Origin: an uncultured Verrucomicrobiota bacterium
GTDB taxonomy: Bacteria; Verrucomicrobiota; CALLYA01
Reading direction: 5' to 3'
DNA: 42,547 bases
Assembly: GCA_937875495.1 (NCBI GenBank)
Contig: CALLYA010000181.1
Location: 1 to 42,547, forward strand
Positions 3,281 to 42,547 of this stretch are shown here, piece by piece (within the stretch, counting starts at the first letter, position 1; each line of letters starts with the position of its first letter). Below the pieces are notes generated by a model. It ran no database searches. It was not told where the DNA came from and saw only the letters and a program-made list of their open reading frames with translations. The position numbers and the translations under genes were made by a program.

Positions 3281-4510
3281 TCAGGCGTCGCCATCCAACA
3301 GTTGACGAACCAACAACAGGAGCCGCTGCGGGGCATACGGTTTCTGGAGCATGTGCAGCCCCTCATCATGCACGAACTGCGTCTTCACCGTCCGCTCGCC
3401 ATACCCGCTGGTAAAGAGGAAGGGGACATCCGGCGCCATCTCGCGAATTCTCCCCAAAATCTTGGGGCCCGACAGCCGCGGCATCACGACATCCAAAATC
3501 ACCAAACAGATCTCATCACGATGCTGCTCGAATAGCTTGCAGGCCTGCTGACCATCCGCTGCGGAGAGCACCCGATACCCAACCCCCTGGAGCACATCCT
3601 GCCCCAACTTACGTACCAGGGCGTTGTCCTCAGCAAGAAGTATGGTCTCACTTCCACCCTGGACCGCCACCTCCTGTATCGTCGACCCCAGTTCCGCCAC
3701 ACCCTCTGGATGGCACTCGGGAAAATAGATTTTGAAGGTGGTGCCATGCCCCGGCTCGCTGTAAACCTCGATCATCCCCTCGTGCTGCTGGACAATGCCG
3801 TAGACCGTGGCAAGCCCCAATCCCGTCCCCTTGCCCACCGCCTTCGTCGTGAAGAAAGGCTCAAAAATGTGCGTGCGCGTCTCCTCGTCCATACCCTGGC
3901 CCGTGTCCGTTACGCTCAAAAGGACAAATCGACCCGGCTTCGCCCAGATGTGGTTCTCACAATAGTCGAGATCCAGTTGGACATTGTCTGTCTCAATCGT
4001 CAACGTCCCCCCCTCCGGCATGGCATCTCGACCGTTGATACCCAGATTCATCAACGCCTGTTCCACCATCCCCGGATCGGCGAAGACAGAATGAAGCCCC
4101 TTCCCAGGAATCCATTCGACCCGATACTGCTCGCCCAACAGCCGGGTCAGCATCCGGGCAATCCCATCCACCACCTCGTTCAGATCCAGCGCCTTCGGCT
4201 GCATGATCTGGCGGCGGCTGAAAGTGAGCAGCTGGCGCGTTAAATCCCCGGCCCGCTGCGCACTCCGCTTGATCTCCAACAGCCCCTCCCGCGCGCTACC
4301 GGAGGTGTGCTCGTCGTCCAACATGATCTGTGCGTAGCTCAGGATCCCCTGGAGGATGTTGTTGAAGTCATGGGCAAGCCCCCCAGCCAATTGGCCGACC
4401 GCTTCCATCTTCTGCGCATGCCGGTATTGCTCCTCAAGCTTGAGCCGCTCGGACATGATCGCCTGGTTCTTCTCGAAGAGTGTCCGATAGCGCTCCTCGC
4501 TCCTGGCCAA
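3281..4510 (-). CDS. hybrid sensor histidine kinase, cytoplasmic part (HisKA + HATPase_c + C-terminal receiver)
   Basis: H-box [14 protein letters not shown] boxes ([23 protein letters not shown]) and a receiver domain (ILLAEDN...LVILDVVMP...TSGY). It opens only with TTG directly after a stop codon, so it is probably the frame-shifted continuation of 4339..5100. Confidence 0.8.
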
Positions 4511-10517: not shown

Positions 10518-10579
10518 GCCCAGCCTGGAGCTCGAATCCGTCCGAAAATAGCATGCGGTCACAGCAGAAGGCACTCAGG

Positions 10580-10835
10580 CTCCGGAAGGGGAGGACAGGA
10601 AGGGGGGAGGGAAGGTGAAAGGTAAACTTGGAAGACGCAAAGACACGAAGGTCCGGAAGGAGAGGTTTGCCTGCAGGGTTGAGGTGATCCCGGCATCTGC
10701 CTCGGTCTGCTGAAAACGGCACATCTAAAAATTTCCCAATAAGGTAGGGATCAGAGCATGAAACCTACCCACCCCCATCGCCAAGTCGAAAACGCCACCG
10801 CGTCCTCTGCGGGAGACTCTCCGGCTCCGGAGAGG
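10580..10835 (+). repeat. mosaic dispersed repeat, copy B
   Basis: About 85-90% identical by eye to 39240..39470 (GGGGAGGACAGGAAGGGGGGAGGGAAGGTGAAAGG...GGTAGGGATCAGAGCAT..CCTACCCACCCCCAT..GTCGAAAACGCCACCGCG). It lies between two convergent genes. Confidence 0.8.
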
Positions 10836-13037: not shown

Positions 13038-13284
13038 GGGCCTCTCTCAATCGGAAGATGGGTATGACCCGTCGCACGTGTGACTTCCGTCCCATCGCAG
13101 GCGACCGGTCACATCAAGATAAGGATCCGCTTTCCCTCCATATACCAGATCCCTTCTTCCAGGTCGAGATGCTCCGGTCCGCCCCATTCTTTTCCATAAG
13201 GAAGGCGAAAGCGACGCGAATAGGGTTGGTCGCAAAACGGATTGATTATCATTAAATCAATCCATATATCCCGGGGTGTATCAC

Positions 13285-13405
13285 TTGCAGTACCCGTACC
13301 CGTACTCCTACTCGTCCACGCTCTCCCAACTTCTCGTGCTCTAGTTCCATTCGCCTCCGCGTGTACGGGAACGTGTACCGCTTCGTTGTGTACGCGTACG
13401 TTACT
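13285..13405 (-). pseudogene. four-helix-bundle (23S rRNA IVS-type) gene remnant with conserved 5' leader
   Basis: MELEHEKL is followed directly by a GYGY-type tail (gtacgggtacgggtac). The upstream leader TGGGCCCAGTAACGTACGCGTACACAACGAAGCGGTACACGTTCC is near-identical to 37394..37450. Confidence 0.5.
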
Positions 13406-13420
13406 GGGCCCAACAAGGCG

Positions 13421-13556
13421 GTTGCTGAAAATCGCTCCGATGTAGCTGCCCCCCCCAATACACCTCTGCGTTCTCTGTGCCCTCTGCGGGAGTCCTCCCC
13501 ATCCGGACCCGGAGACCTTTCGTTGTGGCACAATTTGGTTTTCGGACGACCTCTAG
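13421..13556 (+). repeat. mosaic dispersed repeat, copy A (partial)
   Basis: GTTGCTGAAAA..GCTCCG..CCCAATACA.CTCTGCG...CGGGAG.CCTCCCCATCCGG.CCCGG.GACCTTT matches 42035..42121. The terminal GGTTTTCGGACGACCTCTAG matches 39526..39546 and, in reverse complement, 42444..42460. Confidence 0.75.
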
Positions 13557-13630
13557 CCTGGATTACGCAAAATTGCCCACGTGTGCACCGAATCAGTTTC
13601 CATTCGCAACTCTCCACCAGCCCTTATCAA

Positions 13631-22567: not shown

Positions 22568-23320
22568 TCATGCCGGCCTCGTTCCTTTGCAGGCCGGAAA
22601 GGCCGAGCAGCCCCAGAACGTGCCTTTGGCCGACTTGCGCCGACGCATGGGCTTGCCGCAGTCCGGGCAGTCGGGGGCGTCTGCGGACGTTTGCTCTCCC
22701 CGCGCCTCGATGCGCTTGGTCATCAGGCGCTCGCGGAACCCGCCGGTTTCTTCAAAGGCCTTGCCCTGTGCCGTGATCTGGCTCTTGAGCATGTTCAACG
22801 CGCGGCCAATGATAATGAGCATTGCGTTGGCCACCACCACCGCGTCGTCGTCATCGAGCCAGCGGGCGTATTTCTTGCGCTGCTCCAGCGCGTGTTTGGC
22901 CGACTCGTGGACCATGTCGTCTTTGAACGGCGGGTCATCAAGCGAAATAGCGTTGATCGCCTTGGCCTCGTGCGAATGCACCGACCACGGGAGCTGCCCG
23001 CGGTCGAGGATGAAGATCTCGTAGTCGCCCCGCAGTTCGCTGAGGCTGGCGCGGGCGACGTCGGTGAGCTTCATCTCGGTGTCTTTGGAGGTCGAGGAAC
23101 GCTCCGAACCCTCAATGATGTTCTGGCGTCCGCTACGCGCGGCCTGGGTCATCTGGTCGTATTGCCGCCCCTTGGGGTCGTAGAACTTCTCGCCCGTCGC
23201 ACGGTGATCGAAGGTCAGGAAGCGACGGCAGAACCGCAGCGTGTCGAGCTGCACAATCGTGGCCAGCGTGAACGAGTGCAGACGCCGGAACCCCCCGTGT
23301 TTGTCGAAAAGCTCAGGCAT
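22568..23320 (-). CDS. four-helix-bundle-suffix domain protein with a C-terminal topoisomerase-type C4 zinc finger
   Basis: HGGFRRLHSFTLATIVQLDTLRFC...QAARSGRQNIIEGS matches the four-helix-bundle suffix pattern. The C-terminus is CPDCGKPMRRRKSAKGTFWGCSAFPACKGT. Confidence 0.7.
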   Translation of the reverse strand: MPELFDKHGGFRRLHSFTLATIVQLDTLRFCRRFLTFDHRATGEKFYDPKGRQYDQMTQAARSGRQNIIEGSERSSTSKDTEMKLTDVARASLSELRGDYEIFILDRGQLPWSVHSHEAKAINAISLDDPPFKDDMVHESAKHALEQRKKYARWLDDDDAVVVANAMLIIIGRALNMLKSQITAQGKAFEETGGFRERLMTKRIEARGEQTSADAPDCPDCGKPMRRRKSAKGTFWGCSAFPACKGTRPA

Positions 23321-23328
23321 GGGAAACC

Positions 23329-23468
23329 CCTTGTTGGTGCGGTGACCGGACTGACCTTGGTGACATTATTGACCTTGGTGACAACATCCTCAGCGCGGTC
23401 AATCTGGTCAATCCAGTCATGCGTGTCAATGCGGTCATCACAACTCCCCCGCAAACGCCTGGTGCAGC
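23329..23468. repeat. direct repeat copy 1 (hsdS 3' end plus 5xTGAC / 5xGTCA 9-bp phased dyad array)
   Basis: TGAC at 23343, 52, 61, 70 and 79. GTCA at 23398, 407, 416, 425 and 434. Near-identical to 23521..23642 except for an 18-bp (two-unit) indel. Confidence 0.9.
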
Positions 23469-23520
23469 CGCGACTTCTTCAATGCCGCCAGCGCCGCCTG
23501 CTTTTGCGCGTCGTGGCGCT

Positions 23521-23642
23521 CCTTGTTGGTGCGGTGACCGGATTGACCCTGGTGACAACATCCTCAGCGCGGTCAATCTGGTCAATCCAGTCATGCGTGT
23601 CAATGCGGTCATCACAACTCCCCCGCAAACGCCTGGTGCAGC
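23521..23642. repeat. direct repeat copy 2 (3xTGAC / 5xGTCA)
   Basis: Same sequence as copy 1 minus two 9-bp units. Confidence 0.9.
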
Positions 23643-24844: not shown

Positions 24845-25177
24845 TCAAGAGTAACCCGCAACGCTTGGTTGGGGCTGCTCGTCTTTTCCCTCCAAATCGA
24901 AATCGCTATCGGGATCGAAACCGGCTCCATAGACGTCCTGTTCTTCTCGAACTTGGTATCCTCTTCCATCCAGACGGTTGAACATGGCCGCCATACGATA
25001 GAGTTCCGTCTTGCCCCCGACTTCGGCTATGTTCAACGGGATCGATTGCCTGCCGCGAAGCCACGAGTCCCGTGTAGGGGGCTGAACGCCGTTCGCCCCC
25101 TCGGCTTTCTCGTAAACCCACGCGACATAGCCGATCGATAGTCGGTAAAAGTCCAGCTTCTCATGCCCCACCGTCAT
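24845..25177 (-). CDS. four-helix-bundle protein (23S rRNA IVS-type), short form
   Basis: HEKLDFYRLSIGYVAWVYEKA...SIPLNIAEV.GK...RGYQVREE plus an acidic FDPDSDFD tail. It sits directly after the last attC-like site. Confidence 0.6.
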   Translation of the reverse strand: MTVGHEKLDFYRLSIGYVAWVYEKAEGANGVQPPTRDSWLRGRQSIPLNIAEVGGKTELYRMAAMFNRLDGRGYQVREEQDVYGAGFDPDSDFDLEGKDEQPQPSVAGYS

Positions 25178-25223
25178 AGTGCATCGATCCCGAAATCCCC
25201 GACCCCGATCCCGATTTCGATGG

Positions 25224-25283
25224 CCCTGACGCTCAGCACCAGCCGCCGCGTACAGAGCCGTCCGCTGCATGCGGTTGTTAGGC
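25224..25283 (-). repeat. attC-like site (terminal, degenerate core)
   Basis: Minus strand GCCTAAC...GTCAGGG. The TAA of ORF 25278 lies inside GCCTAAC. Arm pairing is weak. Confidence 0.4.
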
Positions 25284-25661
25284 TGGCAACTCCCACGCAC
25301 GCAAGCCCTCTCCACAAGTGCAGTTCTTCTGGTACCAATGAGTAGGAGCACCACAGGCCGTGCATGACCATTCAAGGGCCTGCCGTTCGAGCCAGACCTG
25401 AATGCCGTGTTCTTGGATGAACTGAAGGTTGGGAGACATGGACCAGTGATGCGGCCATTTGTCATTCATGAAGTCAGCCAACCGCGGGCATGGGTAGTCG
25501 GCGCAGAAGCAACATGCCTCTAAGCTCTTGTCCTTAGCACAATGCCTGAACTCACATGTTTTTACGTGGTCGTCAATTAAGCCACTTCGGCATCCATGGC
25601 AGTCTTCAGCACCACATGCCCCGCAGTAGAGCCCACATGGTCCGAATTGACCGGTCTTCAT
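25278..25661 (-). CDS. DUF3795-like Cys-rich protein (cassette)
   Basis: CGLYCGACGAEDCHGC...CEFRHC...CCFCADYPC pattern. Confidence 0.65.
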   Translation of the reverse strand: MKTGQFGPCGLYCGACGAEDCHGCRSGLIDDHVKTCEFRHCAKDKSLEACCFCADYPCPRLADFMNDKWPHHWSMSPNLQFIQEHGIQVWLERQALEWSCTACGAPTHWYQKNCTCGEGLRAWELPA

Positions 25662-26257: not shown

Positions 26258-26685
26258 CATTTTATGCCCGTTCCAGATCCTATGCCGCGCCTCCTTGAAC
26301 TCCGGGGCGTCGCAGGAGGTTGGCTGGAGCCAATTAGATATGACCCCATTTTTCTCTCCTCGATGTTCGGGGATTCACTTCCTCCGGCTTCATCACATAC
26401 CGGTTTGGTTCTTTCCCACGTTGTTGATGATTACCCAGTAGTCTCCTGTGATCCTTTCAAGGCTGTTTCCAAGCGGCACCGGATTCCGTTTGGATAGCGC
26501 CTTTTCTTGGACTCCGTTCCGCTCTTGTTGTATGCGATTGCGTCGACGATGCCTCCCGCGTTGCGGGCAGTCTGCATTACCTTCCAGCCCATGCAGGAGA
26601 GCCGGTACCAGGCGTAGTACATGCCGATGTTGCCCGTAACTTGCGTTTCCAGCTTCATGTCGTCCGAAAAGTAAGGCGCTTTCAC
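26252..26685 (-). pseudogene. PD-(D/E)xK-like nuclease-fold gene with at least 2 frameshifts (cassette)
   Basis: GNIGMYYAWYRLSCMGWKVMQTARNAGGI.DAIAYNKSG in frame 1, QEKALSKRNPVPLGNSLERITGDYWVIINNVG in frame 2 and EKNGVISNWLQPTSCDAPEFKEARHRIWNGHKMA-stop in frame 3. The fold call is tentative. Confidence 0.4.
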
Positions 26686-26690
26686 ACCCA

Positions 26691-26860
26691 GGCCTTCCCC
26701 TATCCGGATCGGGAGTGCCAGCCTCCCCCAAAGGGCCCAGAGGACGCGGTGGCGTTTTCGAACAATGCTTCCGCGGCGAGCACGATTCCCCCCCCTTCCC
26801 TCGATTAACTCGACGACACCGAGCTTGCTTCTCCTTCTACCTTTTCGGACGTCCTATAGC
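26691..26860 (+). repeat. mosaic dispersed repeat, copy E (partial) inside a cassette
   Basis: GGCCTTCCCCTATCCGGATCGGGAG...AGAGGACGCGGTGGCGTTTTCGAAC matches 41880..41935. CCTTTTCGGACGTCCTATAG matches the TTTCGGACGACCTCTAG module. Confidence 0.6.
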
Positions 26861-26959
26861 TTCATGTTCCCCCTCTAGGCCTAACGAAAAGGTCAGGCAC
26901 AGCCACTGGCAGCCGCACTCGCGACTGAAACCACAGTGTTGTTCCGTCTGATACTCATG

Positions 26960-27463: not shown

Positions 27464-27486
27464 GTCGTCACATCTGGACCGGAATC

Positions 27487-27520
27487 AGGTGGATCCGTCT
27501 ATCTTCCCATTATGCCCAGT
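27487..27520. repeat. 34-bp short form (empty-site form) of the 167-bp repeat
   Basis: AGGTGGATCCGTCTATCTTCCCATTATGCCCAGT. It encodes the last codons (..NWA-stop) of ORF 27510. Confidence 0.8.
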
Positions 27521-28283
27521 TCGTCTGCGTCTGCCTTTTGGCGAGCGTCCGGAACCGATCCTCTAATTCCCCACGCAGGCGTTGGTGGCCCTCGCCGTTG
27601 TTCAAGTAGTACGCGTAGCGATGATGACGCAGGTCGAACGGGATATCGTCTGGGTTCTGTGTGATCGGTACCACATGTTTGCCCAGTACATGCGCTATTC
27701 CTGCTTCATAGAAAACGTTGGCGTTCCTGCCCGAGAAATCGCACACAACCACATAGGAGCGGAAGATCAGAGAGAAAACATCCTGAATCACCGTGGAGTC
27801 TTCCCATATGTCATCGGCACGCACGCACCGGAATCCGGCTGCCTCTGCCGCCGACTTGATCGTCTGGTAAACCGGTCGCAAGACTGGATCGAAAGACATC
27901 ATCACGGAGAGAAGATTGATGTCTGGTTTCTCGGCAGGCACTGAGAAGACCATCGGCGAGAAGACAATGCGCCTGGCTCCCTCGTCGGTGCACGAGATGA
28001 ACTCCCCTCCAGCCGGACATGTGCGGCCGATGTAGTCCAAAATCAGTGGGAAGTTGTCCGGTCTCGCATCAATCATGTCCTTCAGCATCTGAAGAGCATG
28101 GCCATCGTAGTCGTCGTCATTCCACCGAAGGCTGCGAAGCAGGCGCGAATGCCGGTTGACTTCGTCGAGCATCTCCGTGATGGCGCCAAGCTCTCGCCAA
28201 TTGGACTCGCTGAATCCGCTGACGACCTGGTTTTTCAATGCGATGAGCTGTCGACCCGTTGGAAGTTCCGTCTTCTCCATCAT
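27510..28283 (-). CDS. two-domain protein: unknown N-terminal domain plus a C-terminal nucleoside 2-deoxyribosyltransferase-like/TIR-like Rossmannoid domain (cassette)
   Basis: VMMSF...VYQTIKSAAEAAGFRCVRADDIW...DVFSLIFRSYVVVCDFSGRNANVFYEAGIAHVLGKHVVPITQ..DIPFDL..HR matches the pattern I know from Nuc_deoxyrib_tr/TIR-like effector domains. Not searched. Confidence 0.5.
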   Translation of the reverse strand: MMEKTELPTGRQLIALKNQVVSGFSESNWRELGAITEMLDEVNRHSRLLRSLRWNDDDYDGHALQMLKDMIDARPDNFPLILDYIGRTCPAGGEFISCTDEGARRIVFSPMVFSVPAEKPDINLLSVMMSFDPVLRPVYQTIKSAAEAAGFRCVRADDIWEDSTVIQDVFSLIFRSYVVVCDFSGRNANVFYEAGIAHVLGKHVVPITQNPDDIPFDLRHHRYAYYLNNGEGHQRLRGELEDRFRTLAKRQTQTNWA

Positions 28284-29593: not shown

Positions 29594-29621
29594 TACAACT
29601 CATTTCGCCTCCATTGCTGAC

Positions 29622-29685
29622 GCCCTACTGAGTGTTGAGGCTTTCGGCGCGCCAGCGACGAATACTCTCCGATGCCTTGTACTGC
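29622..29685 (-). repeat. attC-like site, CTTTCGGCGCG subfamily
   Basis: 64 bp. CTTTCGGCGCG sits at almost the same offset (1 nt further in) as in 31179..31240 and 35564..35626. The cores are GCAGTAC/GTAGGGC, so AAC/GTT are both changed to TAC/GTA, which is compensatory. Confidence 0.5.
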
Positions 29686-29688
29686 TCC

Positions 29689-31178: not shown

Positions 31179-31240
31179 CGACAACTTCACGCCTCACTTT
31201 CGGCGCGACGGAACGTGACGGCAAGTTCCCCTTGTTAGGC
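31179..31240 (-). repeat. attC-like site, CTTTCGGCGCG subfamily
   Basis: Minus strand GCCTAAC...CGCGCCGAAAGTGAGG-cgtgaa-GTTGTCG. The TAA of ORF 31235 lies inside GCCTAAC. Confidence 0.55.
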
Positions 31241-31784: not shown

Positions 31785-32153
31785 TCAGCATTTCACGTGC
31801 GTTTTGATCGCCACTTTGGTGTTCTTCGCCCCCCCGCTCGATAGAAATGTTGCATCAGCTTGGTTGAACGACCGCACGACTTCATCCGAGCCAATGAGGT
31901 TGAACTCGAGTGCTGTTCTTTTGTAGTCAAACGAAACAATCTGTTTCTGAGCTTTCGCGAACTCTTTCGGGTCCTTGATTCCCGCTAGCGTGCGGACAAT
32001 CGGCTCGAGTGTATCTAGGTAGATTTTCCTTCGTTCGTCTACGAGGCGTTCCTTCGCTCGCTGGAGTCGATCTATGCGCGATTGGATGAACCAAACGCCA
32101 AGTCCGACCACTCCGGCCAGCACGGTTGCGATCAGCTGTTCGTTGAGGCCCAC
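31785..32153 (-). CDS. hypothetical TM plus coiled-coil protein, 122 aa (cassette)
   Basis: GTG start with GGAGAA upstream. Its stop overlaps the ATG of a 42-aa ORF (31663..31791, ATGCTGA), which may be its frame-shifted C-terminus. Confidence 0.55.
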   Translation of the reverse strand: MGLNEQLIATVLAGVVGLGVWFIQSRIDRLQRAKERLVDERRKIYLDTLEPIVRTLAGIKDPKEFAKAQKQIVSFDYKRTALEFNLIGSDEVVRSFNQADATFLSSGGAKNTKVAIKTHVKC

Positions 32154-33186: not shown

Positions 33187-33366
33187 TTATGAGATAGATT
33201 CAGCCGTATAGCTGAGGGTGATTTCGCCATCTTGAAACGGGAATGATTCGGTTTTCAGAACCTTGTGCCAATATCCGCCCCGAAGGTGTTGCACGAAAGC
33301 ACCACAAAGGCCCCCGACGACAAGGACCACAATGAAGGCGATAGCTGTGACCAGTTTCTTTCTCAT
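33187..33366 (-). CDS. small membrane protein, 59 aa (below the ORF-track cutoff, translated by hand)
   Basis: MRKKLVTAIAFIVVLVVGGLCGAFVQHL...SIS-stop, with AAAGAG before the ATG. Confidence 0.4.
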   Translation of the reverse strand: MRKKLVTAIAFIVVLVVGGLCGAFVQHLRGGYWHKVLKTESFPFQDGEITLSYTAESIS

Positions 33367-33387
33367 CTCTTTAGCCGAACACTAATT

Positions 33388-33551
33388 AGGTGGATCCGTT
33401 TATTATCCAGAGTTGTCCCTTCCGGTCCGTATACAGCCCCTTGGTTGTCTTCAGAATAACAGGACAAGCAATTCATTGTCAACACATTGCGAACTCCTTT
33501 GATTTTTATTCGGCATGCTATGCAGATCTGCCTACCTTCCCATGATGCAGG
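33388..33551. repeat. 167-bp-class repeat, copy 2 (filled form)
   Basis: About 85% identical to 38781..38947. Flanked by internal direct repeats GGATCCGTTTAT / AGATCTGCCTAC. Confidence 0.85.
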
Positions 33552-33591
33552 TTGGAATTTTCCCCACTTTCCTAAGCGCACGATCATTCCC

Positions 33592-35557: not shown

Positions 35558-35563
35558 GTTGGC

Positions 35564-35626
35564 CTCCTAACGTATACCTTCACTTTCGGCGCGGTACGTG
35601 CCGTATAGCGCAAGGCTTGGTTAGGC
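35564..35626 (-). repeat. attC-like site, CTTTCGGCGCG subfamily (63 bp)
   Basis: Minus strand AAAATGGCCTAACCAAGCC...CGCGCCGAAAGTGAAGG-tatac-GTTAGGA-GGccaacATG. The TAA of ORF 35621 lies inside GCCTAAC. Confidence 0.7.
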
Positions 35627-36913: not shown

Positions 36914-37240
36914 TTACGAATTCGCCTCGGACGGCTTGCTTGCCGCCTGGTTTTTCTTGAACTCGAATCTGAACCGCAAAATCTTGATGACCGCGGCAAG
37001 AAAGCATGCGAATCCGGACACGGTTGCGCCAATGAACAGACCCCAGATCATCCCGACGGCGAATGCGTAACGGGTGACGGATGTTCCGGCTTCAGGACCG
37101 AACACACTCTTCACGAAATCTGGTGAAATGGCGGCAACCAACGCGCCGAAGGCGCCGCCCAGGAGGGCCGACAGCAACGACCCCACCACAATGAAGACGA
37201 AGAACCAGATTGCTCCCTTGATTGCGTTCTCAGTACTCAT
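36914..37240 (-). CDS. hypothetical membrane protein, 108 aa (cassette)
   Basis: Three hydrophobic helices and a basic C-terminal tail. Confidence 0.55.
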   Translation of the reverse strand: MSTENAIKGAIWFFVFIVVGSLLSALLGGAFGALVAAISPDFVKSVFGPEAGTSVTRYAFAVGMIWGLFIGATVSGFACFLAAVIKILRFRFEFKKNQAASKPSEANS

Positions 37241-37393
37241 TTCTCTGTCCTTTCTCGTTCCCGTACCCGTACACGCTCTCCTGTTCGCGAACCTGGTTCC
37301 CTCGCGCGGTCAGGGTCCAGCACACCGTGTAACCCCACGCCGCGAAGTCTAGAGCTACCCGGTAGACATCCAACTTCTCGTGATCTATTTCCA
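37230..37393 (-). pseudogene. internally deleted four-helix-bundle gene remnant
   Basis: MEIDHEKLDVYRVALDFAAWGY is fused to ...ARGNQVREQESVYGYG. The leader carries the GTACGCGTAC palindrome, as at 13351..13405. Confidence 0.5.
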
Positions 37394-37715
37394 TTCGCAT
37401 CCTCCTGCACTGGAACGTGTACCGCTTCGCTGTGTACGCGTACGATTCTGGGCCCAGCGTCGCAAATGAGGATTTGGCGCGGCTACGTGACAATATCCTT
37501 CATTTGTCTTGTTCGGCATTGTTCTTTCTTTCTGAACGGCGCATAGCGATCTACTGCTCGCTTTGATTCCCTGTGCACTCAATCGTCAGTGATGATGCTG
37601 CGTTGTCAAGGGGGCCAAGGTTGGGCACGTCGTGATGTTCCTTGTGTGGGGTGGCGTAGTCGTTCATGCGTATCCGTTCGTGTCGGGTAAGATGGGGGGG
37701 GGCGAACGTCACGGA

Positions 37716-38501: not shown

Positions 38502-38756
38502 TCACCGGACAAAATGAGCGCAGCTCATTTTGGTACGGTCGAAACTTTCGTTCGAATTAATTTCATTTTTTGTCTTTTTCCAAGAAAGCTCAGGTCTATC
38601 ATTTACCCGGATCAAAAGTCGAAAGGCAAACCAGAGCAAGATCAGCGTGACTATTTGAATTGTCGATAAAACGACACAGAGCAGGATGCCCTCAAGCAGC
38701 AAGACCTCACTCAGAAATGTGATGGGGCCTCTCAGGCTGTGATTATCTACTCGCAT
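38502..38756 (-). CDS. hypothetical small membrane protein, 84 aa, AT-rich (cassette)
   Basis: Two hydrophobic helices. Its stop abuts the juxtaposed cores ACTCAAC|GTTGGGC (38487..38500). Confidence 0.45.
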   Translation of the reverse strand: MRVDNHSLRGPITFLSEVLLLEGILLCVVLSTIQIVTLILLWFAFRLLIRVNDRPELSWKKTKNEINSNESFDRTKMSCAHFVR

Positions 38757-38780
38757 AATTTCTCTATTCGAACAGAAATA

Positions 38781-38947
38781 AGGTGGATCCGTCTATCAGC
38801 CGGAGTTGTCCCTCCCGGTCCGTATACAACCCCTTGGCTATCTTGGCATAAAACAGGACAAGCAATTCATTGTCAACACATTGCGAGCTCCTTTGGTTTT
38901 TATTCAGCATGTTATGGAGATCCGTCTATCTTCCCTTATTGCCCAGT
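38781..38947. repeat. 167-bp repeat, copy 1 (filled form)
   Basis: AGGTGGATCCGTCTATC-[135 bp]-GGAGATCCGTCTATCTTCCCTTATTGCCCAGT. The ends reconstitute the 34-bp short form at 27487. Confidence 0.85.
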
Positions 38948-39185
38948 GCGTCCAGTCAGTGAAACCGAAAACTTGCGCTACTCGTTGGCCGCACGCCAGG
39001 CCGAAGCGTTTGAACGGTGCGGATGCCGAGACGGCATCGTCTCCGACGACGAGTACTTCTTCGGGAACAGGCCCGTGATGCTTCAGGATCTGTTCAAAGA
39101 CCTCCTGCTTGCCGGTTCGCTCGGGGTCGTCAATGGCGTCGATGAATATCGCTGTGAAGTGAGGGGGGAGCTGGAGGGCTGCAAT
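38946..39185 (-). pseudogene. HAD-superfamily hydrolase C-terminal fragment
   Basis: HFTAIFIDAIDD...GKQEVFEQILKHHGPVPEEVLVVGDD shows HAD motifs III/IV. The N-terminal half is replaced by mosaic repeat copy C. Confidence 0.5.
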
Positions 39186-39196
39186 CTTGCTCGTGC

Positions 39197-39546
39197 CCGT
39201 CCGAAAACCGTGTTGGCCCACAACGAAAGGTCTCCGGGGCTGAATGGGGAGGACAGGAAGGGGGGAGGGAAGGTGAAAGGAAAACTTGGAAGACGCGAAG
39301 ACACGAAGGTCCGGAAGGAGAGGTTTCCTTGGGGGTTGCTGTGATCCCTGCAAATGCCTGATCCGCTGAAAACGGTACACCTGACCAATTCCCCAAAGAG
39401 GTAGGGATCAGAGCATCAACCCTACCCACCCCCATGCCCAGGTCGAAAACGCCACCGCGCCCTCTGCGCCCATTGCGGGAGGCTCTTCGCATCCTGATGG
39501 GAAAGCCAGGCTGGGATGCGGCTGCCTTTTCGGACGACCTCCAGCT
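39197..39546 (+). repeat. mosaic dispersed repeat, copy C (most complete, inverted termini)
   Basis: It starts CGTCCGAAAACC and ends CCTTTTCGGACGACCTCCAG, which are inverted. The internal modules are shared with copies A, B, D and E. Confidence 0.8.
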
Positions 39547-41616: not shown

Positions 41617-41856
41617 TCATCTGCAAGCGCGTCCGGCGAAGCCGTTTTGGCTTGCGGAGTGCCTGAGCAGCTCGCATGACAAAAGCGCCTGGTAGCGATG
41701 AGTCTGCAACCCAATAAGAGTACCCATCTTCGGCAGCACCTCGGCAAGTACTTCGTCGAACCTCTCTGCCTGACGTACCCGCCAGTCGAGACCCCTAACT
41801 TGATCCTCCAGGATTACCCTTTGAGCCTTGCCCCCCTGAGGCAGTACAAACTCGAA
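41617..41856 (-). pseudogene. MazF/PemK-type toxin C-terminal fragment
   Basis: FVLPQGGKAQRVILEDQVRGLDWRVRQAERFDEVLAEVLPKM resembles the C-terminal half of PemK-family toxins (..QIRTID..RL...). The N-terminal half is replaced by mosaic repeat copy D. Confidence 0.4.
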
Positions 41857-41858
41857 AA

Positions 41859-42121
41859 GGTATCCGCTTTCCCAACCAGGCTTTCCCATCCGGATCCGGA
41901 GAGTCTCCCGCAGAGGGCGCGGTGGCGTTATCGACCTGCCTATGGGGGTGGGCAGGGCCCAGGCTCTGCACCCGACCTTTTTGGGTAAATTTTGTGATAA
42001 ATCATTTCGGCAGACCAGGCAGTTGCTGAAAACGGCTCCGCTGTAAGTACATCTCCCCCTCCCAATACATCTCTGCGAACTCTGCGGGAGCCCTCCCCAT
42101 CCGGCCCCGGTGACCTTTGGG
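41859..42121 (-). repeat. mosaic dispersed repeat, copy D
   Basis: The reverse complement shares CCCACCCCCAT.GC.AGGTCGA.AACGCCACCGCGCCCTCTGCGGGAG..GATGGGAAAGCC with copies B and C. The plus strand shares GTTGCTGAAAACGG...CCTCCCCATCCGG with copy A. Confidence 0.75.
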
Positions 42122-42443: not shown

Positions 42444-42547
42444 CTAGAGGTCGTCCGAAAGGGTAGATGGCGAAGCAAGATCGGGGTCGGGGTCGCTATC
42501 GGTCTCGGTATCGAAAGGACGCGGGATGGGATTCGGACACGAGAAAC
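42444..42547 (-). other. 3' end of a gene running off the window, possibly another four-helix-bundle copy
   Basis: ...FDTETDSDPDPDLASPSTLSDDL-stop. The acidic D/P tail resembles the one at 24845, and the stop lies inside the shared TTTCGGACGACCTCTAG module. Confidence 0.3.

Follow-up and report, generated by a model that had tools for sequence, protein, structure and literature searches.

How does one 34-nucleotide sequence come to stand intact at one site of a genome and, at two others, to be split by about 135 bp of conserved sequence? The window analysed here, a 42,547-nucleotide contig of an uncultured Verrucomicrobiota bacterium (CALLYA010000181.1), raises this question. An earlier model-made reading of the letters without database searches (the sequence-only reading) had offered two explanations, a small insertion element with an unusually long target duplication or a deletion between direct repeats, and had regarded the sites as a second type of inter-cassette junction carrying a promoter-like motif. 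The repeat, which we call family E, is most likely an ordinary dispersed non-coding regulatory repeat rather than a new mobile element. That it represents a shared promoter and 5' leader module, which would also serve as recombination homology, is a reading to which we give an even chance, based on the sequence comparisons described below.

The copies lie in an island (~23.9-39.4 kb) in which all plausible genes are on the minus strand, small and functionally mixed. It encodes a DUF1080-type 3-keto-disaccharide hydrolase, a DUF3795 protein, a zinc-ribbon protein, an AbiJ_NTD5 protein with a TIR-like effector match, a GNAT acetyltransferase, a YdeI/OmdA protein, a methyltransferase, a thioredoxin-like protein and a glyoxalase-fold protein, next to many ORFs without a family. 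The AbiJ_NTD5 protein (257 aa, 27510-28283) combines the AbiJ N-terminal domain 5 with a C-terminal match to the PADLOC TIR effector model (E=2.4e-9), and its gene, the stop codon of which falls within the short E form called C below, is a candidate anti-phage defence gene. Defence-system models returned nothing for the genes downstream of E. The window holds several other repeats. A 110-nt unit is repeated 174 bp apart with 96% identity (23359-23642), downstream of a 250-aa protein (22568-23320) with a topoisomerase-type zinc ribbon and a weak match to 23S rRNA intervening-sequence proteins (IVP). Apparent fragments of four-helix-bundle genes, similar by inspection to those of 23S rRNA intervening-sequence proteins, occur at 37230-37493, 24845-25465 and 13109-13531, interleaved with pieces of a second repeat family, R; they have conserved leader repeats (for instance 13326-13412 versus 37370-37456, 89% identical), and a Pfam search with the 37230-37493 ORF gave no match. 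Finally, the motif CGCGCCGAAAG is found on the minus strand in three intergenic regions shortly before start codons (31191-31234, 35558-35620 and 29594-29688), followed in two of the three by TGA(G/A)G.

The three sites, with the 34-mer intact in C and split in copies A and B, are where the sequence-only reading had put them (Table 1). A and B are 83.9% identical over 186 nt (E ~5e-47, BLASTN and nhmmer; 38758-38942 versus 33365-33548). Their homology runs about 23 nt past the left edge given previously, to the start codons at 38756 and 33366, and stops there, at the ATGs of unrelated ORFs, excluding coding sequence. Read in the sense of the genes, each copy begins close to where the gene before it ends, or past that point, and stops at the ATG of the next one. 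The position 3' of a minus-strand gene or fragment and 5' of the next ORF had been recognized before. All three copies are on the gene strand (minus), and the products encoded downstream of them (84-aa, 59-aa and 167-aa zinc-ribbon proteins) are mutually unrelated. Short form C is without the ~133-nt middle; one side of it covers the stop codon of the AbiJ/TIR-like gene, and the other reaches the ATG (27463) of the 167-aa zinc-ribbon gene. nhmmer matches it to both ends of A with E=6e-5 (C 27478-27525; 34-mer 27487-27520). With up to three mismatches allowed, the 17-mer GATAGACGGATCCACCT has four occurrences where 0.06 would be expected. At the edges of the middle, A has a direct repeat of 12 exact bases (GATCCGTCTATC on the plus strand), or 13/15, which in B is degenerate (8/15, longest exact run 4). 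The direct duplication of 13-15 bp described earlier is thus clear in A and blurred in B.

Table 1. Coordinates in the window of the E copies, their parts, the genes they precede and the neighbouring R repeats.
Feature	Positions	Strand	Remarks
E copy A, full length	38757..38950	-	between the stop region of the HAD gene fragment and the ATG (38756) of the 84-aa membrane-protein ORF
E copy B, full length	33367..33556	-	from ~40 nt past the methyltransferase stop (33592) to the ATG (33366) of the 59-aa ORF
Short form C	27464..27525	-	5' and 3' ends of an A-like copy joined at a single GATAGACGGATC; promoter-like middle absent
Direct repeat GATAGACGGATC (12 nt) in A, upstream copy in gene sense	38919..38930	-	12 exact bases
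Direct repeat (12 nt) in A, downstream copy	38786..38797	-	CACCT comes next, then the leader as far as the ATG
Core GCAATGTGTTGACAATGAATTGCTTGTCCTGTT (33 nt) in A	38852..38884	-	holds the -35-like TTGACA (38876-38871)
Core (33 nt) in B	33458..33490	-	-35-like TTGACA at 33482-33477
-10-like TTTTAT of A	38848..38853	-	17-nt spacer; fails the scanner rule of A at position 2
-10-like TATTCT of B	33453..33458	-	18-nt spacer, preceded by TG; 10/12 consensus matches
Break point in other strains	38884..38889 (B equivalent 33490-33494)	-	upstream of GCAATGTGTTGACA replaced by the right end of R
84-aa ORF downstream of A	38502..38756	-	two hydrophobic stretches by inspection; distant homologues P0002 and P0003
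59-aa ORF downstream of B	33187..33366	-	hydrophobic N-terminus; unrelated to the 84-aa ORF
R element, ~300-350 bp	39198..39546	-	terminal inverted repeats CT(A/G)GAGGTCGTCCGAAAAGG, ~20 bp; adjoins the HAD fragment just upstream of A
Related R pieces	10539-10830, 13326-13558, 26661-26900, 41853-42118, 42444-42547		

The middle of E contains a 33-nt core that is invariant in A, in B, in a further variant D found in other strains and in all 20 strain loci, while the remainder of E differs by 9-16%. The TTGACA-17-TTTTAT of A and the TTGACA box of B, which had prompted the earlier mention of a promoter, are indeed present on the minus strand, and the -35 is conserved at the level of the letters. 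In B, where TTATTC at 17 nt had been given before, the pair is TTGACA-18-TATTCT (33482-33453). The -10 region is the least conserved part of E (TTTTAT, TATTCT and TTGTAT). A consensus promoter scanner passes B (10/12, TG-extended) but neither A nor D, by a sigma-70 consensus that may not be that of the host, and promoter-like matches over the island do not exceed those in shuffled sequences (3 observed versus 6.9 expected). Assembled metatranscriptome contigs break at the repeated core, hence their ends are uninformative on transcription starts.

Where the middle may come from is suggested by P0002, a 63%-identical homologue of the 84-aa protein on contig L056. Its upstream region retains TGTTGACAAT, the scanner accepts TTGACA-16-CATCAT in it, and the ribosome-binding-site-proximal leader by the start codon is kept, whereas the left direct repeat is absent. 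Because TGTTGACAAT and the leader stand there without the left repeat, the promoter-bearing middle appears to be native upstream DNA of the 84-aa gene family that would later have been copied before other genes. The perfect identity of the 33-nt core could stem from gene conversion instead of selection.

Related strains were represented by 20 contigs, found via two proteins of the window. A and B are each unchanged in every strain contig that has them, and C is short in 10/10 strains with that junction; at no locus do the strains differ in state, and the 20 contigs include no polymorphic filled or empty site. Variant D, the 3' half of E, is present in six of them before an unrelated 89-aa ORF, with 91% identity to B and 85% to A. 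It belongs to the second of two population haplotypes, which differ in that the 1.5-kb segment 31950-33494 (E 3' half, 59- and 131-aa ORFs) is replaced by 2.2 kb (3268-5509 in contig L013) with an R composite, D and ORFs of 89, 67 and 68 aa. In the six contigs of haplotype 2, the 5' half of B is retained after the methyltransferase up to AAAGGAG, followed by the ~1.4-kb R composite and then D, and identity to the window returns abruptly at 31949. The left boundary of the replacement is therefore within E and the right one is a sharp change to 100% identity within an ORF.

Further copies, for which the sequence-only reading had proposed a search, were found beyond the window, namely D and a few more diverged ones, but only a handful per genome. 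Among metagenome contigs at 80% identity or above we count about 3-6 E contexts; metagenome and metatranscriptome contigs at that identity show two or three additional downstream contexts and one diverged copy (TTTTTCAAGACATTGCGCGCCC...). E 3' halves precede at least four unrelated genes, and from the depth at the shared core we would expect a handful of E copies per genome. In representative genomes (one per species) an exact 24-mer seed had 0 matches, and an 18-mer seed had 33 in unrelated taxa, none of which extends past the seed, hence no true E copy. The metagenome scan returned locus A only, from near-identical strains; the source organism is common in digester, landfill and sludge metagenomes. 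As far as these data show, the E family is limited to one strain-variable island of small same-strand genes. A 772-nt contig (run X30; window 38811-39280) joins a B-type 3' end (TAGGTGGATCCGTTTATTATCCAGAG...) to an A-type 5' side and the HAD fragment, as a product either of recombination between E copies in another strain or of chimeric assembly through the 33-nt core.

How short form C arose is central to the question posed by the 34-mer. C equals A at 17/17 positions on each side and B at 14/17 and 15/17 (3 and 2 differences). By sharing A-specific bases on both flanks it gives the grouping ((A,C),(B,D)), which is drawn from five diagnostic positions and no outgroup. The full length is most likely ancestral, since C carries A-specific bases on both sides, and C probably derives from it by deletion between the 12-bp direct repeats. 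Since A, B and D are full-length copies and the E middle is about as diverged as the flanks, a single loss in the lineage of C would be the simplest history. Deletion between short direct repeats is an established mechanism, through replication slippage or RecA-independent recombination, and C bears its signature, in that precisely one of the two 12-bp repeats is left and everything between them is gone; this mechanism covers the origin of C only and not that of the E family. Because TTGACA is missing from C, the gene behind it would rely on read-through.

The alternative is that the middle is a non-autonomous insertion element of ~133 bp that duplicates 12-15 bp of its target, with C as the true empty site. 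It would explain why the middle of A is bordered by an exact 12-nt direct repeat (chance ~1e-3 per 190-nt stretch, by our estimate) and why C reads as the flanks of A with one repeat copy. Nonetheless, we regard it as decidedly improbable. Terminal inverted repeats are absent, no inverted repeat joining the ends of the 133-bp middle or of E having been found. The duplication expected at each copy gives a mixed picture, with 12 exact bases in A and 8/15 in B, while the left side of D was removed by an R insertion. All strains are in the same state at each locus, and the copies amount to a handful, all in or near one island. Moreover, C groups with A and all others are full length, thus the same 13-bp target would have to be hit twice, or excision would have to be precise. 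Finally, in the L056 homologue the stretch with TTGACA appears to be upstream DNA native to the gene, and the left repeat is missing there. From the pair of explanations offered by the sequence-only reading, deletion between direct repeats is therefore the one to keep, given that C is A-like on both flanks, that A, B and D are full length and that the TTGACA-bearing part of the middle appears native in the L056 homologue; the insertion element with a long target duplication is disfavoured.

The breaks in E seen in other strains involve R, a repeat family distinct from E, with CTAG tips and with members that occur singly or head to tail; R has no match in Rfam. In some strains R members split E at a point immediately 5' of the -35. 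The R composite of haplotype 2 lies between ...CAAAGGAG and CTAGCAATGTG..., in variants of copy A a similar R end adjoins GCAATGTG, and metagenome variants of copy A show the same break, with a loose end ...CGTCCGAAAAGG that is an R end. R also appears to have truncated the HAD hydrolase gene (38904-39380), which comprises the C-terminal part only (Pfam profile positions 132-182 of 191) and whose homology starts approximately where R ends (39198). The tetranucleotide CTAG is ~7-fold rarer in the window than base composition predicts (21 against 153 expected), and GATC is 2-fold commoner than expected. Repeated insertion of R at a rare CTAG target, together with recombination between repeats, accounts for the shared break point and requires no dedicated cassette mechanism, and the symmetry of R is probably the 'attC-like symmetry' that had been seen at other junctions. 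Two more observations regard R. Metatranscriptome contigs from four sludge runs reach a depth of 460-1240x at window positions 39375-39516, versus ~5x in neighbouring DNA, and have many loose ends there; either very abundant transcription of the 5' part of R or its presence at many loci and in many organisms would account for this. Additionally, in contig L020 (~4060-4090, versus L013 ~4056-4100) the CTAG tip of the R unit that precedes D adjoins an entirely different genomic context, with 1198- and 1455-aa genes, which suggests an R-mediated rearrangement or a chimeric assembly.

Several identities that such a repeat might have were tried and rejected. Internal ORFs reach 48 aa in A and 21 aa in B owing to a 1-nt indel, and their start is removed in D, which argues against a small-protein gene. 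Paralogous gene duplication was rejected because the downstream proteins are unrelated, and a typical MITE because terminal inverted repeats and a polymorphic empty site are lacking and the copies are few. For an integron, whose attC sites are imperfect inverted repeats of 50-150 bp with RYYYAAC ... GTTRRRY core sites, a crude screen of both strands (23.6-39.8 kb) gave 0 attC-like candidates, and the junctions have no repeated hairpin pattern; no integrase or recombinase was found among 30 ORFs (Pfam, 19.5-42.4 kb) nor in the examined flanks of other strains; and the sole strain-variable segment starts within E and ends within an ORF (31949). The earlier remark that E is without attC-like symmetry is borne out by the folds, the lack of a hairpin pattern and the attC screen alike. 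The term 'inter-cassette junction' finds no support in the integron sense, given that these scans gave neither an integrase nor an attC-like site and that the variable segment ends within an ORF. A structured RNA or DNA hairpin was likewise rejected. E folds no better than its shuffles (z = +1.2 and +0.4 on the gene strand, +1.6 on the other strand), and the Rfam check that had been proposed brought no family at the gathering score and only chance-level matches at E<5.

Among the remaining alternatives, E could be a structured cis-regulatory RNA leader, riboswitch-like or a thermosensor, or a small RNA gene. The leader would be long (~90 nt) and place conserved blocks (CCAAGG, GACCGGRAGGGACAACTC and ACGGATCCACCT) before unrelated genes, and all three full-length copies precede small hydrophobic proteins, loosely recalling type I toxin loci. 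Yet the folding and Rfam results just given run against it, on either strand and even at permissive thresholds, and the substitutions among A, B and D break candidate stem pairs without any compensatory change (by inspection of three sequences), making an RNA of this kind highly unlikely. We give a slim chance, and no more, to a site-specific or cassette junction at which E 5' halves, E 3' halves with their genes and R units are joined at CTAG/AGCT points. In favour of this view are that copy A, B/D and the metagenome variants share one joining point, immediately 5' of GCAATGTGTTGACA, where several different partners meet, that the R tips are the under-represented CTAG and that E 3' halves head at least four unrelated genes. 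However, the ORFs scanned include no recombinase or integrase, the other end of the variable segment falls within an ORF and has no motif, and recurrent R hits at the rare CTAG followed by homologous recombination between repeats yield the same junctions. A bolder version, in which the E 3' half is the head of 'promoter-first' modules swapped with R units at a fixed CTAG/AGCT junction by some recombination activity, is slimmer still; if true, it would amount to a cassette system without attC or integron integrase that shuffles small membrane-protein genes. Finally, the E copies may be functionless leftovers of segmental duplications in a fast-rearranging island, their TTGACA being coincidental. 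This is unlikely, though it is not far-fetched considering that promoter-like matches are not enriched, that the -10 is not conserved and that the island is full of fragments and repeats. Against it speak a homology that halts at the start codons of unrelated genes and excludes coding sequence, a core that stays invariant against a 9-16% difference elsewhere, and TGTTGACAAT retained upstream of a 63%-identical homologue.

The reading of E as a shared promoter and leader module would account for its layout as follows. A full copy would be the whole 5' region of the next gene, with an A-rich stretch, a perfect -35 (TTGACA) in an invariant block, then, after 17-18 nt, an AT-rich hexamer resembling a -10, and a leader of ~90 nt up to the start codon. 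Such a portable unit would give genes that lie after the end of an upstream gene, or after a disrupted gene, a transcription start of their own; with only the HAD fragment upstream of A, the genes downstream of A would need one. E would have spread by duplicative recombination and may now act as a homology patch for the exchange of segments between strains, in line with the haplotype-2 replacement, which begins within E. C would since have lost the promoter-bearing middle through deletion between the 12-bp repeats, leaving its gene reliant on read-through from the AbiJ/TIR-like gene.

If the promoter role is true, genes dropped into a rearranging island gain transcription from a reusable upstream module, and the repeated module becomes a place where strains swap gene segments. 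The use of this would lie in the annotation of similar islands in uncultured bacteria, and current understanding is left unchanged. The deletion reading of C is also a caution against taking one 'filled versus empty' pair as evidence of mobility.

Known systems resemble parts of this picture. Inverted-repeat elements of the IS5-family type have CTAG ends or a CTAG target, and it is R, not E, that invites the comparison. R has terminal inverted repeats of ~20 bp, CTAG tips and several insertion contexts, including within E; it differs in that no transposase was identified, that its units can stand head to tail and that a target duplication is inseparable from the palindromic tip. Correia repeat-enclosed elements of Neisseria, present in hundreds of copies, are bounded by 26-bp terminal inverted repeats and duplicate a TA target. 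These and similar MITE-like repeats of ~100-160 bp lie between genes and can bring -35 and -10 boxes to them, as E may do, but E lacks inverted repeats and numbers a handful of copies. Promoter-containing ORF-less integron cassettes end in a classical attC and are moved by the integron integrase (PMC8876359, section 2.4.3). E is likewise a non-coding unit among small same-strand genes that could supply the genes behind it with a promoter, and differs in that no attC-like site or integrase was found. The class I and II intergenic repeats of halovirus HF2 (29-58 bp) are archaeal-type and are promoters by reporter assay (PMC8707807). Although E is longer (~190 bp), bacterial sigma-70-like and a putative promoter, it shares with the HF2 repeats that it is short and non-coding, stands before different genes, carries a promoter motif and is present in few copies within one replicon or region.
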